DNA of 64,000 nucleotides, taken from contig LBVV01000009.1 in the NCBI GenBank assembly GCA_000993275.1, positions 2,897 through 66,896 of the forward strand, in the 5' to 3' direction. Position 1 is the stretch's first letter. Every line of letters begins with the position of its first letter. Shown here one piece after another: positions 1,722 to 51,738 of this stretch. Source of the stretch: a candidate division CPR2 bacterium GW2011_GWC2_39_10 (GTDB taxonomy: Bacteria > Patescibacteriota > CPR2). Below the pieces are notes generated by a model. It was not told the origin of the DNA, did not search any database, and saw only the letters and a list, made by a program, of their open reading frames with translations. A program made the position numbers and the translations under genes.

Positions 1722-1818
1722 GTAACTGCTCACAATCGTCATTGCGAACGATCCGGCAGCCGCCGGAGAGTGCGGCAATCTTGTTTCAAGCAGAGGAGAT
1801 TGCTTCGTTTCACTCGCA
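1722..1818. repeat. Repeat family A, full copy 1 (97 bp)
   Basis: Near-identical (one mismatch) to 6205-6302. Begins with the TGTAACTGCTCACAATC motif and contains the internal hairpin GCAATCT..AGATTGC. Confidence 0.85.
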
Positions 1819-3463: not shown

Positions 3464-3799
3464 TTGACAGCACAAGCAAAAACCCCAGAAAAGACGAAGC
3501 AAAGGATAAGAATCAGGCTAAAAGCTTATGACCATAAGATTATTGATGAGTCATGTAAGCAAATTATTGAAACTGCGGCAAGAACAGGCGCTTTGGTTGC
3601 CGGACCGGTACCGCTTCCAACTCAACGGAATGTGATTACGGTTATCAGATCTCCGCATATCGATAAAAATTCCCGGGAACAGTTCGAGATGAAAACCCAT
3701 AAAAGGCTGATTGACATCCTTGATCCCGCTCCAAAAACAATAGATTCCCTAATGAATCTAAACTTACCGGCCGGTGTAGATATCGAAATTAAGATGTAG
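3464..3799 (+). CDS. rpsJ: 30S ribosomal protein S10
   Basis: [15 protein letters not shown]...PVPLPT; TTG start after an AAGGAG RBS. Confidence 0.93.
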
Positions 3800-3823
3800 A
3801 TAAATTAAGATGTAGATAACAAA

Positions 3824-3853
3824 AAAGAGTCAGGCAGTTGCCAGACTCTTTTT
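3824..3853 (+). terminator. Rho-independent terminator after rpsJ
   Basis: AGAGTC..11-nt loop..GACTCT followed by TTTTTT. Confidence 0.6.
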
Positions 3854-3995
3854 TAATGTCAAATGTCAAATTACAAAATATTTAGTTATTGGCATTAATT
3901 AATATCATTTGGTGGTTATTTTTTTTGTTTTAATCAAACGATTGCGATTTTGCTTTTTGCTTTATATACTTATGATATAAATAAAAGAGGGTGAA

Positions 3996-6068: not shown

Positions 6069-6204
6069 TAAAAAAACCGCCCCATCATGGGATAGTCTCT
6101 CTCATTTGAGTCTCAATTGGATTACTAAAATCTCCATCTAAATGACTTAAGGCTGGCAGGAAATCGGAAAGACAACTAAAAAAATGAGTGTAACCCAGGC
6201 CCTT

Positions 6205-6302
6205 TGTAACTGCTCATAATCGTCATTGCGAACGATCCGGCAGCCGCCGGAGAGTGCGGCAATCTTGTTTCAAGCAGAGGAGATTGCTTCGTTTCACTCG
6301 CA
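6205..6302. repeat. Repeat family A, full copy 2
   Basis: 98 bp, near-identical to 1722-1818. Confidence 0.85.
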
Positions 6303-6400
6303 AAAAACTGCTTAAAATGTGCTAAAATTTAAAATCAAACAAAAATGCAACTTTACAATTAAATGAAAAATGTCAGCACTGATTTAGGAGGGGAATTAAA

Positions 6401-15166: not shown

Positions 15167-15844
15167 ATGGCAGATTTTGTGAAGTCCGAAGAGAAATTAT
15201 ATGATGAAAGAGTCGTACAAATCGACCGAATCACCCGTGTAGTTGCCGGTGGCAGAAGGCTTAGATTTAGAGCAACCGTAGTGGTTGGAGACAAAAACGG
15301 CAGTGTTGGTGTTGGCATAGCTAAGGGTCGTGAGGTTGTTTTGGCAATTAACAAAGCTTCCCAAAAGGCTCGAAAAAGCATGGTTAAAGTTACCCTTAAA
15401 GGCACAACTATCCCTCATGAAGTCATGGTGAAATTCAGTGGCGCGAAAGTTTTTCTTAAACCCGCATCTAAGGGTACCGGTGTTATTGCCGGCGGAGCGG
15501 TACGCGCAGTGGTGGAGGTTGCCGGCATCCATGATATTTTAAGTAAAATGATTGGTTCTTCCAATAAAATCAATAATGTTTATGCAACTTTTGAAGCTCT
15601 AAAGCAATTAAAGGCAATAAACAATAAACAAGAAACAATAAACAAGAAAACAGAAAAGAAAATGGTAGAAAACCCTGTTAAGGAAGAAAATGAAATCGAA
15701 GAAAAGGCTGATGAAGCAGTAAAGGAAGAAATTGCTAAATCACCAAAAATAGAAAAAGAAAAAGCTGCCGAAGCGGTAAAAATTGAAAAAAAAGAAACTA
15801 AGGCAAAAAAAGATATTAAAGAAGTAAAAAAGAGTAGTAAATAA
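15167..15844 (+). CDS. rpsE: 30S ribosomal protein S5 with a ~70-aa Lys/Glu-rich C-terminal extension
   Basis: [22 protein letters not shown] core, then a KEE/KKE low-complexity tail. Confidence 0.93.
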
Positions 15845-16278
15845 TGAAGTTACACGAAATTACCCAAAAAGTTGGGAAAAAGTCAAAAAGAATTGGTCGC
15901 GGAATTGGTTCCGGGCGAGGCAAAACTGCCGGACGAGGAACAAAAGGTCAAAACTCCAGAACCGGAGGCGGAGTTAGGCCCGGCTTTGAAGGCGGACAGA
16001 CGCCTCTTATTAGGAGAATCCCCAAACTTAAAGGTTTTAAATCCAGAAATCCAAAAGCCAAAGTTATTAATTTGGATGATTTAAATAAATTAAGTGATGG
16101 CGCCAAGATTAATGACGGGACGCTGGTTGCATCCGGTCTGATTTTAAAGGGCCAAAAGTACAAGATATTGAACAGCGGCAATCTTGAAAAAAAATTGACC
16201 CTAGATACAGAAAGCGTTTCTAAAGAAGCCAAAAAAATTATTGATAAATCCACAAAAGAAGCCAAAAAAGCATCATAG
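15844..16278 (+). CDS. rplO: 50S ribosomal protein L15. It directly follows rpsE and there is no L30 gene.
   Basis: GRGIGSGRGKTAGRGTKGQ. Confidence 0.94.
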   Translation: MKLHEITQKVGKKSKRIGRGIGSGRGKTAGRGTKGQNSRTGGGVRPGFEGGQTPLIRRIPKLKGFKSRNPKAKVINLDDLNKLSDGAKINDGTLVASGLILKGQKYKILNSGNLEKKLTLDTESVSKEAKKIIDKSTKEAKKAS

Positions 16279-21563: not shown

Positions 21564-21625
21564 ATCAAAAGTCAAAATGCATAAAGAATTATATTCAAAA
21601 ATCACTATCTAAATACCCTTAACTG

Positions 21626-21650
21626 TCATTCCCGCGGAGGCGGGAATCCA
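21626..21650. repeat. Palindromic hairpin of the GTCATTCC family (ATTCCCGC-GGAG-GCGGGAAT)
   Basis: Lies in the rplM-rpsI spacer. Confidence 0.6.
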
Positions 21651-21707
21651 GAAGCCTAAAATAGGCAATAAGGATTAGTGAAAGAAAAACCCCAAGAGGA
21701 GACATTA

Positions 21708-22118: not shown

Positions 22119-22124
22119 AAAAAA

Positions 22125-22147
22125 CCACTCGAAAGAGTGGTTTTTTA
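22125..22147 (+). terminator. Rho-independent terminator that ends the ribosomal super-operon
   Basis: CCACTC-GAAA-GAGTGG followed by TTTTTT. Confidence 0.8.
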
Positions 22148-22190: not shown

Positions 22191-22240
22191 TGTCAATCCG
22201 GACATTCCTTTAGAAAATACAATCAAGTGATCCGGAATCC
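22191..22240. repeat. ~50-nt palindromic element (CCGGACATTC...TGATCCGGAATCC). A second copy sits at 25215-25263.
   Basis: The two copies align almost base for base. Confidence 0.7.
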
Positions 22241-22282
22241 AGAAAGAAAAAAATATCAATCCTGTCCTTTTCTGAAGCAAAA

Positions 22283-22452
22283 AGTAACTGCTCACAATCC
22301 TGCATTTTATGTTCATATATTATATTAAACTATTTATGTCATACCAAACTTGATTTGGGATCCACTTGTTCAGTTAAATATCGAGCTTTCTGGATTCCGG
22401 ATCAAGTCCGGAATGACAAGAAAGGGGGGGGTGATTGTGAGCAGTTACAGCA
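22283..22452. mobile_element. MITE-like element (~170 bp) with perfect 16-bp terminal inverted repeats GTAACTGCTCACAATC. No transposase is present.
   Basis: The left TIR is at 22285-22300 and its reverse complement at 22435-22450. The interior carries an ATTCCGGA-TCAAG-TCCGGAAT hairpin. Confidence 0.6.
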
Positions 22453-22798
22453 AAAAATATTGATTTTTGGCCATATTTATGATAAAATATAAAATCAATC
22501 AAAATGTAACTTTGCAAAAAAATAAAAAAAGTGGAATGAATTTAGGAGGGGATTCGGATGTAATTGAAATGGTATCTCGTTTTGTTTGCAAGTTTCGTTG
22601 TGTGCGGACTGTTTTATTGGTACATAAGAAAGATCAATAAGGTAAGGGCTTTAGAACTCTGGAGATTACAGATTACAGATTCTATTATGGAAAATGGACT
22701 TTCAACAGTAGAAATGGGGGAACGAGGCGCGTAGGTAGAAATCCAACTTGCTTAAGATGTGTAAATTGTTTATGATAATTTAGTAAATAGGAGCAAGA

Positions 22799-24103: not shown

Positions 24104-24133
24104 GATTCCCGATCGGGTCGGGAATGACGAAGG
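24104..24133. repeat. GTCATTCC-family hairpin (ATTCCCGA-TCGGGT-CGGGAATGAC)
   Basis: Seen in the sequence. Confidence 0.55.
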
Positions 24134-25126: not shown

Positions 25127-25214
25127 AGGTTCTAGAAGATTTTATCAAGGAAAGGGCTAGGTGTTAAGACGATTTTTCATAAATGCTATTTAGTGGTGTT
25201 TTTCTCACATTTCC

Positions 25215-25263
25215 GTCATTCCGGACATTCATTTAAAAAGTACAATCATTTGATCCGGAATCC
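25215..25263. repeat. Second copy of the ~50-nt CCGGACATTC...GATCCGGAATCC palindromic element
   Basis: Aligns with 22191-22240. Confidence 0.7.
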
Positions 25264-25282
25264 ATTCTTTTTTAAAGTACTT

Positions 25283-25415
25283 TCTTTTCCACTTTTGGCA
25301 GCAAAAGTGGAGCAAAACTGCCGACACGCTACAAAATCGGATTAGCACATAAGGCTCATTCACTCTCAAAAAGTCGAACTCGTCGTGCATCTCGATTTTT
25401 CCGCTACAGTCGGAC
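25283..25415. repeat. Repeat family B, copy 1 (133 bp)
   Basis: Near-identical to 31446-31594 apart from a 17-bp indel. Starts with the hairpin CCACTTTTGGCAGCAAAAGTGG. Confidence 0.85.
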
Positions 25416-25484
25416 AAAAGAAGGGAAATTTGATTTAAAGGCAAAAATTATTTTTTTAATCAATTCTTTGCTATAATAACATTA

Positions 25485-31367: not shown

Positions 31368-31404
31368 ATAATTGTGCATCTAATTTCAGAATGGGTTTAA
31401 GTAT

Positions 31405-31429
31405 GTCATTCCGGACTTGATCCGGAATC
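31405..31429. repeat. GTCATTCC-family hairpin (ATTCCGGA-CTTGA-TCCGGAAT) after ricT; may act as a terminator
   Basis: Seen in the sequence and followed by a T-rich tract. Confidence 0.55.
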
Positions 31430-31445
31430 TATTATTTCTTTATTT

Positions 31446-31594
31446 CTATTTCCACTTTTGGCAGCAAAAGTGGAGCAAAACTGCCGACACGCTACAAAAT
31501 CGGATTAGCACATAAGGCTCATTCACTCTCAAAAAGTCGAACTCGTCATCTTCTCTTCGCCAAGTGCATCTCGATTTTTCCGCTACAGTCGGAG
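31446..31594. repeat. Repeat family B, copy 2
   Basis: Aligns with 25283-25415. Confidence 0.85.
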
Positions 31595-31643
31595 AAGAAT
31601 TATAGATATTGATATCGCAAATAGTATGGACTATTATTAATTT

Positions 31644-32870: not shown

Positions 32871-33533
32871 ATGAAAACTAATCTTAAATCAAAAGCCATA
32901 TCTTTGCGTAAGCAAGGCTTCTCTTTGAAAGAAATAAGTGAAGATTTAGGTATAGCAAAAAGTACGGCATCCTTGTGGTTAAGGGATACTGTTTTAAGCG
33001 CAAATGCTATAAAAAGGATTGAAAGTAGAATAACTAAAGGACAAATAAAAGCGGCTGAAATAAAGAGAGAAAAAACAAGAAAATTGTTAAATGAATTTCA
33101 AGCAAAAAGCGATGTGTTAGTTGGGCGAACTATATTAAATATTGATATGATAAAGATAATATGTTCATTGATTTATTGGTGTGAGGGGGGTAAATATAGC
33201 GATAATTTCGTACAATTTACCAATTCAGATCCCAGTCTTATGGGTACATTTCTGCAATTACTTAGGCAGGTATTTATGGTAGATGAAAAAAAATTTAGGG
33301 TTTGTATGCATCTTCATGACTATCATAATGAAAAAAAGCAAAGACAATTTTGGTCTATGGTAACAGAAGTTCCCGAGAGCCAGTTTATAAAGTCATACAA
33401 TAAGCCAAATACGGGAAAGAGAATTAGAAAAGGTTATCAAGGATGTGTGCAGTTGAGGTATTATGATGCGGTAGTATCGAGAGAATTATTAGCAATAGCT
33501 AAATCTTTCATGAATAAACTTGAAAACAAATAA
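32871..33533 (+). CDS. HTH DNA-binding protein with a possible degenerate LAGLIDADG homing-endonuclease-like core
   Basis: N-terminal HTH (SLKEISEDLGIAKSTASLWLRD). The segment LIYWCEGGKYSDNFVQFTNSDPSLMGTFLQLL resembles a LAGLIDADG helix plus following strand. The catalytic acidic position is not conserved. Confidence 0.4.
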   Translation: MKTNLKSKAISLRKQGFSLKEISEDLGIAKSTASLWLRDTVLSANAIKRIESRITKGQIKAAEIKREKTRKLLNEFQAKSDVLVGRTILNIDMIKIICSLIYWCEGGKYSDNFVQFTNSDPSLMGTFLQLLRQVFMVDEKKFRVCMHLHDYHNEKKQRQFWSMVTEVPESQFIKSYNKPNTGKRIRKGYQGCVQLRYYDAVVSRELLAIAKSFMNKLENK

Positions 33534-39498: not shown

Positions 39499-39693
39499 AG
39501 ACCGCTAACGCGGAATATCAAATTAAAAATGTCAAATGTCTAATGAAATTCTAATGATTAAATTCCGAAAATTAAGATTTAAGATTTTGACATTCATTTG
39601 TAATTGACATTTGACATTAAGATCTTCATATCTTCCAAATTTCACAAATTCGTTATGTCATTCCAAACTCGACTACAGAATCTAGGAAGAATG

Positions 39694-39771
39694 GATTCCT
39701 GGTCAAGCCTGCCTCGCTTTGCTCATCAAGGCGGGCCAGGAATGACAAGTTGGGATTGTGAGCAGTTACAG
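39694..39771. repeat. Composite repeat end: a GTCATTCC-family hairpin (..CCAGGAATGACAAG) followed by the reverse-complement GATTGTGAGCAGTTACAG motif. The architecture matches 22394-22452.
   Basis: The GAATGACAAG, short spacer, GATTGTGAGCAGTTACAG order is shared with the MITE's right end. Confidence 0.6.
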
Positions 39772-51515: not shown

Positions 51516-51715
51516 TCTTTCTACTTTTTGGCAGCAAAAAGATAGCAAAAACTGCCGACAAAGCTACAAAATTGGGTTAGGACTGAGTCTTGTTCACTCT
51601 CAAAAAGTCGAACTCGTCGTAACCTCCTCAAACACAACTTTTTGAGATGTTCCCTGCGACATCCGACCTCAGCTTCGCCGAAGGCGAGACGGGAGTCCAC
51701 CACAATTTTTACGCT
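51516..51715. repeat. Repeat family B, copy 3. It carries a ~70-bp insertion flanked by CTCAAAAA / TTTTTGAGAT.
   Basis: Aligns with copies 1 and 2 at both ends (CTACTTTTTGGCAGCAAAAAG..CTGCCGAC..CTCTCAAAAAGTCGAACTCGTCG ... CGCTACAGTCGGA). Confidence 0.7.
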
Positions 51716-51738
51716 ACAGTCGGAAAAAATGAAATATT

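Follow-up and report, generated by a model that had tools for sequence, protein, structure and literature searches.

Genomic context of the repeat copies

The window (the whole 64-kb stretch of DNA that was analysed) is chromosomal and has a GC content of 37.8%. It carries fusA-tuf-rpsJ, a gene for a beta-propeller protein, the S10, spc and alpha ribosomal-protein operons up to rplQ-rplM-rpsI, a tRNA cluster, and ordinary housekeeping and surface-protein genes. Directly after rpsE comes rplO, the L30 gene being absent at this place (15167-16278); together with the accession series, this arrangement presumably points to a host from the Candidate Phyla Radiation (CPR), an uncultivated groundwater bacterium. 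Identical proteins are encoded on Rifle groundwater metagenome contigs (PRJNA268031) and on LBXQ01000055.1 of GCA_000995565.1. Four MITE-type copies were identified: one complete element of 165 bp, two truncated 122-bp relatives and one one-ended remnant. All four are intergenic and located in or next to translation-factor and ribosomal-protein operons, where the insertions occupy spacers (fusA-tuf, downstream of rpsI) with no gene disrupted. A screening of the window against Rfam identified only four tRNAs and no match at the MITE-type elements, and the program-made list of open reading frames contains none of 90 aa or more within the 165-bp or 122-bp elements.

Separately from these copies, a 220-aa ORF with a weak HTH_23 match is located at 32871-33533 (+) between tRNA-Thr(GGU) and tRNA-Trp, the position that tuf often occupies in many bacteria; it may be the remnant of a mobile-element gene or a regulator.

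A complete 165-bp element downstream of rpsI

The 16-mer GTAACTGCTCACAATC is present exactly at 1722-1737 (+), 22284-22299 (+), 22433-22448 (-), and 39754-39769 (-), and a fifth occurrence with one mismatch (6206-6221, +) reads GTAACTGCTCATAATC. The five matches compare with an expectation of 0.04, and none of 100 shuffles of the window reached five. Two of the exact copies, the left TIR at 22284-22299 (+) and its reverse complement at 22433-22448 (-, 16/16 nt), delimit a non-coding element of 165 bp (22284-22448). The first-pass annotation had described a 170-bp element at 22283-22452 with perfect 16-bp terminal inverted repeats; the perfect repeats were recovered and the coordinates had to be corrected. 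A perfect 8-bp direct repeat, AGCAAAAA, which the first-pass annotation had not described, can be read directly next to both ends of the element (22276-22283 and 22449-22456).

On one side of the element is the rpsI terminator (22119-22146), and on the other the next gene is preceded by promoter-like sequence. As single-stranded DNA the element forms a long hairpin (-29.6 kcal/mol, z = -6.1 relative to 200 shuffles). The internal palindromic hairpin that had been noted earlier is the perfect palindrome GTCATTCCGGACTTGATCCGGAATCCAG at 22390-22417 (-), which is similar to the SRM/NTS repeats discussed below, and it is accompanied by a second, degenerate SRM-like hairpin, GTCATACCAAACTTGATTTGGGATCC, at 22338-22363 (+) that has a homologue in the metagenomic locus L062. 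The sequence of the element is 100% identical across five independent assemblies of the same population, all with the same rplM gene, indicating that it is not an assembly artefact. Empty insertion sites were not found among the sibling assemblies, all of which carry the insertions.

The leaders downstream of two of the MITE copies are alike (6303-6400 and 22449-22560, also 2133-2164). They share the form ..AAAATCAAnCAAAAATGyAACTTTrCAA....TTTAGGAGGGGA..ATG and look like a shared promoter and Shine-Dalgarno region before small membrane-protein genes.

Truncated and one-ended relatives in the window

Two copies of a second repeat, family A, are located at 1722-1818 (+) and 6206-6302 (+; annotated here to 6304). 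They are 97-98 bp long, 99% identical to each other, and lack a second TIR in the window. Both had been described as opening with the 16-mer, which holds exactly for the copy at 1722; the other copy starts at 6206 rather than 6205 and carries one mismatch in its left TIR (GTAACTGCTCATAATC). An SRM-like hairpin, GTCATTGCGA...GCGGCAATCT, directly follows the TIR of copy 1 (1738-1780, +), and the equivalent unit of copy 2 is located at 6222-6264.

One-ended transposition was initially considered for the 97-bp copies because copy 1 is flanked by a perfect TSD (TTTGTCAT at 1714-1721 and 1819-1826) and has no right TIR. This explanation was rejected on the basis of complete 122-bp family-A elements with 14-nt TIRs in sibling assemblies of the same groundwater population (L233, L234, L236, and L237). 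In these assemblies copy 1 reads TTTGTCAT / GTAACTGCTCACAATC...CACTCGCAAAGACGCAGGGTTGTGAGCAGTTAC / TTTGTCAT and copy 2 reads GGCCCTTT / GTAACTGCTCAT...GTGAGCAGTTAT / GGCCCTTT. Relative to the complete form, copy 1 lacks its last 25 bp, including the right TIR (complete in L233/L237), and copy 2 lacks 39 bp comprising the right TIR, the right copy of the TSD and a few flanking bases. The left TSD copy of the latter is present at 6198-6205 and the right one only in the sibling assemblies L233/L234. A 144-bp relative with both TIRs was identified in other metagenomes (L119/L155) and shows 92% identity over the shared 97 bp.

The fourth copy (39659-39769, -) contains a single TIR (39754-39769) and two SRM-like hairpins (39695-39746, -, and 39657-39685, +), and is identical in five sibling assemblies. 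The direct repeat that flanks it matches in 7 out of 8 positions, which is not significant since 7 out of 32 control 8-mers do equally well; because of the single TIR and the non-significant flanking repeat, the copy was treated as a remnant. Its right-hand part displays the succession of hairpin, short spacer and reverse-complement 16-mer (39694-39769) that had been pointed out as common to it and to the complete element, where it spans 22390-22448.

The first-pass annotation had proposed that several repeat types share the motif. The sharing is evident from these data, but the types are not separate, as family A is itself a 122-bp MITE that is truncated in this assembly. The seemingly different repeat types of this genome are one mobile family.

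A widespread MITE family in environmental metagenomes

Outside the host population, the 12-nt core of the terminus, GTAACTGCTCAC, bounds a 153-bp element in bacterium CG2_30_37_16 (L062) that is flanked by the perfect 8-bp repeat GCTTGTTA and adjoined by a homologue of the window element (84% identity). A scan of metagenome contigs with the pattern GTAACTGCTCAC-N(115-145)-GTGAGCAGTTAC, which specifies 24 bases, identified 97 stretches, compared with approximately 0.1 estimated by chance for a collection assumed to be roughly 500 Gb. The suggestion that the motif should be sought beyond the window thus led to the end of a widespread family, with full-length elements on 97 metagenome contigs.

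After removal of duplicates, 88 unique insertion sites with readable flanks remained. Of these, 51 display a perfect 8-bp duplication, 10 match in 7 of 8 positions and 4 in 6 of 8; three or more mismatches were counted at 27 of the 88, probably as a result of age or rearrangement. Control 8-mers taken 12 nt further out always have three or more mismatches, and no exact abutting repeats of any length other than 8 bp were found among the 88 sites. No clear consensus emerges from the duplicated 8-mers, which vary widely and have a GC content of 38%. The inverted repeat usually extends past the 12-mer to a total of 13-16 nt and differs between subfamilies. Target-site duplications, which had been named as a check on the element, are accordingly present as 8-bp repeats at 22284-22448, at the copy at 1722 and, in the sibling assemblies, at both family-A copies, in addition to the 51 metagenomic sites. 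Judged from the sequences, the conserved termini, the fixed 8-bp duplication and the unrelated interiors are the signature of a MITE family derived from a DDE transposon.

Searches with the 16-mer outside the metagenome contigs were less productive. Seven single matches in unrelated sequence were found among the viral contigs scanned, consistent with chance, and the species-representative genomes contain at least 107 single matches, almost all of them due to chance; the informative ones among those listed are L062, L094, and L035. Clustering of the ORFs that flank the metagenomic MITEs revealed no recurrent transposase or nuclease, and IS-sized pairs of termini were not found in the metagenomic loci.

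An IS66-family insertion sequence with the same termini

The 1604-bp contig L035 contains an inverted pair of the 12-mer 1453 bp apart, which defines an insertion sequence at 150-1602 with the ends GTAACTGCTCACAATCCTGAG and GTAACTGCTCACAAATTTGAG. A single ORF of 456 aa fills the 1453 bp, no TnpA/TnpB accessory genes are present, and residues 171-420 of the protein match the Pfam domain DDE_Tnp_IS66 (PF03050, E = 6.7e-37). The gene-distal end, GTAACTGCTCACAATCCTGAG, is identical to the left end of the complete window MITE over 19 out of 19 nt (up to position 22302) and to the other window copies over 16-17 nt. A transposase with matching termini had been called for as a check, and this IS, located outside the window, encodes one. 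A total of 2401 homologues of the L035 transposase were identified at E ≤ 1e-20, nearly all of them about 448 aa long and mostly located on contigs of 1.4-2 kb, the typical appearance of multicopy insertion sequences that have been collapsed during assembly.

A transposase that is 92% identical is encoded in L212, where the 1453-bp IS has the same termini and lies within a 13-kb contig. The ends of the L212-type IS match those of the window MITE over 14-15 nt. This is the only copy of the L035 type with both flanks readable, and no clean TSD was found there. A 58%-identical transposase in L217 belongs to an IS of 1454 bp with 25-nt TIRs, GTACGAGCTCACCATCTCGAGTAAT (ends GTACGAGCTCAC...), and a perfect 8-bp TSD, CAAGTTTT. 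A related IS in L220 has the ends GTATCAGCTCACAACTCTGAG, and related IS copies combine GTAnnnGCTCAC ends with an 8-bp duplication. All MITE ends and the ends of the L035 and L212 ISs begin with GTAACTGCTCAC, and the more distant IS copies begin with GTAY (GTATC.., GTACG..).

In L213 (1-3204), two different IS66-family ISs abut, the end of one (..GTGAATGGTTAC) being 8 bp from the start of an L035-type IS.

When the window and every retrieved locus were searched by tblastn with the L035 transposase, the only match was the protein itself, and no IS66 gene is present in the 64-kb window. The window copies are therefore non-autonomous, which agrees with the earlier proposal of a non-autonomous family whose transposase is absent from the window, the matching-ended IS being that of L035 and L212. 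The L035-type IS and the closest transposases come from samples other than that of the host. Against plasmids, the L035 protein matched annotated IS66 family transposases with approximately 28% identity for the top ones (e.g., ISH10 and ISNpe24), and no match reached 60% identity.

The explanation that we favour, with a probability of roughly 0.9, is that the window element is a MITE mobilised in trans by an ISBst12-group IS66-family DDE transposase encoded elsewhere. The element at 22284-22448 would be a non-coding deletion or fold-back derivative that carries the TIRs of an ISBst12-group IS. In the mechanism that we infer, the termini of 14-19 nt (GTAACTGCTCACAA...) are the binding sites of the DDE transposase, a protein of roughly 450 aa, which makes its cuts at the GTAA.../...TTAC ends. 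The element would then be joined to a target cut with an 8-bp stagger, whose repair would generate the 8-bp duplication. The NTS/SRM-type hairpins just inside the termini, arranged as a head-out inverted pair, would then be copied wherever the MITE goes.

The elements could also be true MITEs that are mobilised by a transposase of another family, the shared termini being coincidental, and 8-bp TSDs are likewise given by other families, among them IS6, ISL3, IS256, and IS1595. Such a coincidence is very improbable in view of the 19/19-nt match to the end of the L035 IS and the 14-15-nt match to L212-type ends. Furthermore, termini that start with GTAA are a hallmark of the IS66 family, which also produces 8-bp direct repeats (PMC11946415), and 11 out of 12 terminal nucleotides are shared with ISDge4 of Deinococcus geothermalis. 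This member of the single-ORF ISBst12 group of the IS66 family has a direct repeat of 8 bp, encodes a transposase of 449 aa and carries the TIR GTAACTGCTCAGCA (PMC12898284).

Hairpins carried by the MITEs

The palindromes beside the termini have the form (C)GTCATT-stem-loop-stem-AATC. They are similar to the NTS repeat of Neisseria, CGTCATTCCCGCGMAVGCGGGAATCYRG, one representative of a larger group called Ssn-related motifs, or SRM (Chenal et al. 2025, PMC11893778). According to that paper, NTS/SRM repeats are the targets of small GIY-YIG nucleases (Ssn), which bind them in single-stranded form and cleave the DNA a few nucleotides upstream (PMC11893778). A free-standing hairpin outside the MITE, TGTCATTCCCGCGGAGGCGGGAATCCAG (21624-21651, +), agrees with the published NTS consensus in 26 out of 28 positions, and a hairpin within the metagenomic MITE L124 agrees in 27 out of 28, differing in the first base. 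The published degenerate SRM pattern has no match in the window because the loops of the window copies differ, and the window hairpins are placed with the NTS/SRM class by resemblance only. A generic scan of the window for GTCWY-tagged hairpins identified six clear copies.

Free-standing NTS/SRM-like hairpins are intergenic and located outside the MITEs at 1502-1540, 21624-21651, 22192-22241, 24104-24130 (-), 25214-25264, and 31404-31429. They follow the form GTCATT[CG]C...G[CG]AATC, and several share the loop CTTGA with stems that differ in a compensated manner (CCGGA/TCCGG, CCAAA/TTTGG). The hairpin at 22192-22241 (+) is degenerate with an enlarged loop, is located 43 bp upstream of the complete MITE and has a paralogue at 25215-25264.

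Among 87 unique metagenomic MITEs, 25 contain GTCWY-tagged hairpins, compared with a mean of 2.9 in shuffled interiors, and the remaining MITEs carry different palindromes. The density of the hairpins is 3.5 per kb inside the MITEs and 0.53 per kb in the flanks (approximately 6.6-fold), and the GTC tag faces the nearer terminus in 39 out of 43 MITE hairpins. The hairpins are accordingly a frequent cargo and a separate repeat class, and not the end that the transposase recognises.

The proximity of the two features raises the alternative that the 16-mer belongs to an Ssn-related hairpin repeat as its oriented 5' flank, and that a GIY-YIG single-strand nuclease of the Ssn type, rather than a DDE transposase, would spread or process the units. 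Of the five 16-mers, four are located 0-15 nt 5' of a GTCATT...AATC hairpin, and in L062 a frameshifted GIY-YIG gene (YVYILASKRNGTLFIGVTSDL...REKRLKVWERKWKIELIEK, 3630-3904, -) lies beside two MITE copies and several SRM hairpins (also L132 and L185). NTS repeats also include a conserved portion on their upstream side, and the arrangement NTS-ssnA-NTS has been compared with that of an IS (PMC11893778). However, such a hairpin is missing from 62 out of the 87 unique MITEs that share the 12-nt termini, and where one is present its spacing from the terminus varies widely, with the GTC tag 14-54 nt from the element end. A TSD with a constant length of 8 bp is the mark left by a staggered cut through both strands of the target, an IS66 transposase gene lies between identical termini, and neither tblastn with the L062 fragment nor a scan for the motif detected a GIY-YIG gene in the 64-kb window. 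These observations largely refute the involvement of an Ssn-type nuclease, and we consider it highly improbable that it explains the 16-mer.

A still smaller probability is assigned to the elements being REP doublets (REPINs/BIMEs) mobilised by a RAYT. They do resemble such doublets in being intergenic, inverted pairs of short palindromes that fold into a long hairpin, but the GTAG tag is absent (the tag here is GTCAT) and both exact 8-bp TSDs and conserved TIRs are present. Transposition of the IS200/IS605 Y1 type produces no TSD and does not need TIRs, and the cognate IS found here is of the DDE type. The least probable reading takes the 16-mer for a binding site, of the regulator or operator kind, that recurs in front of several genes, since the copies, though all intergenic and in some cases upstream of promoter-like sequence, occur in both orientations and also downstream of genes, are bounded by TSDs, coincide with the ends of a transposase-encoding IS, and share a 12-mer that bounds unrelated interiors in dozens of metagenomes.

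Deletions relative to the sibling assemblies

Over the stretches compared, the window differs from the sibling assemblies (L233, L234, L237, L223, and L225) by only three internal deletions of 25, 39, and 42 bp and by no base substitution. The first two are those that truncate family-A copy 1 (at 1818/1819) and copy 2 (at 6302-6304), and the third removes 42 nt at 25384/25385 within another hairpin-forming repeat (25282-25417), so that all three fall inside hairpin-forming repeats. The NCBI contig L235 lacks 30 bp at family-A copy 1 and stops at the very position where copy 2 is truncated. The 25-, 30-, and 39-bp deletions of the window and L235 all begin after ..CACTCGCA, at the edge of the SRM-like unit. 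The deletions are either real strain variants, marking a breakage hotspot, or assembly errors at hairpins.

The repeat affected by the third deletion belongs to a third repeat family in the window, with copies at 25282-25417, 31445-31596, and 51516-51727 (all +). Two parts of the repeat are conserved, approximately 100 nt at the 5' side (TTTCCACTTTTGGCAGCAAAAGTGGAGCAAAACTGCCGAC...GTCGAACTCGTC) and 33 nt at the 3' side (GTGCATCTCGATTTTTCCGCTACAGTCGGA), and they are separated by a variable insert of 0, 16 or 76 nt, and copy 1 has an insert of 42 nt in the sibling assemblies. Copies 1 and 2 are each preceded by an SRM hairpin. The family has no Rfam match at E ≤ 1 and may represent a structured RNA or another small mobile element.

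A broader and speculative reading, which we consider rather unlikely, is that ISBst12-type MITEs serve quite generally as carriers by which NTS/SRM hairpins, the sites recognised by Ssn single-strand nucleases, are multiplied and dispersed in groundwater (CPR-like) genomes, and that the deletions with a common start point mark a hotspot of hairpin- or nuclease-directed breakage rather than an assembly artefact. If true, it would provide a concrete mechanism for the proliferation of hairpin repeats.

Significance and comparison with known systems

By this analysis, a repeat common to many environmental metagenomes is attributed to a defined transposase group (IS66/ISBst12), and it can be annotated by the 12-nt terminus GTAACTGCTCAC and the 8-bp duplication. 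The MITEs carry hairpins in pairs, which is direct evidence that at least some members of the NTS/SRM class travel as passengers of a DDE transposon and bears on how Ssn-associated repeats multiply. Neither MITEs nor the ISBst12 group are new in themselves; modestly new are the wide occurrence of the family in environmental metagenomes and the frequency with which it carries NTS/SRM hairpins, and a narrow literature search found no published description of an IS66- or ISBst12-derived MITE family.

REPINs/BIMEs are, as here, inverted doublets of short intergenic palindromes, but the elements in the window differ from them by the missing GTAG tag, by their TIRs and 8-bp TSDs, and by a partner transposase of the DDE rather than the Y1 type. 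The NTS/SRM repeats of the Ssn system have the CGTCATT-stem-loop-stem-AATC layout in common with the hairpins described here, whereas the latter appear as cargo inside DDE-type MITEs in a window without an ssn gene (GIY-YIG, cd10448).

Other bacterial MITEs (the Correia elements of Neisseria, MITEPsy1/2, and MITECca01) are likewise short, non-coding, multicopy, intergenic and hairpin-forming, with TIRs and TSDs, and bacterial MITEs generally need the transposase of an IS in trans, as is proposed here. The family described here differs from them in its parent, which would be an IS66/ISBst12 element. The TSD of Correia elements is TA, in contrast to the 8 bp observed here.

The closest resemblance is to the ISBst12 group itself. 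In ISDge4 and ISBst12, as in the ISs and MITEs described here, the termini begin with GTAA and the direct repeats are 8 bp long, the ISDge4 TIR being the one that agrees at 11 of 12 terminal positions. The members of the group and the L035-type IS of 1453 bp both consist of a single ORF for a transposase of approximately 450 aa with a DDE_Tnp_IS66 domain. The L035/L212-type IS stems from uncultivated environmental bacteria and is only distantly related (approximately 28% identity) to the best-scoring annotated plasmid-borne IS66 transposases. Compared with the insertion sequences of the ISBst12 group, the elements in the window are reduced to 122-165 bp and carry no gene.
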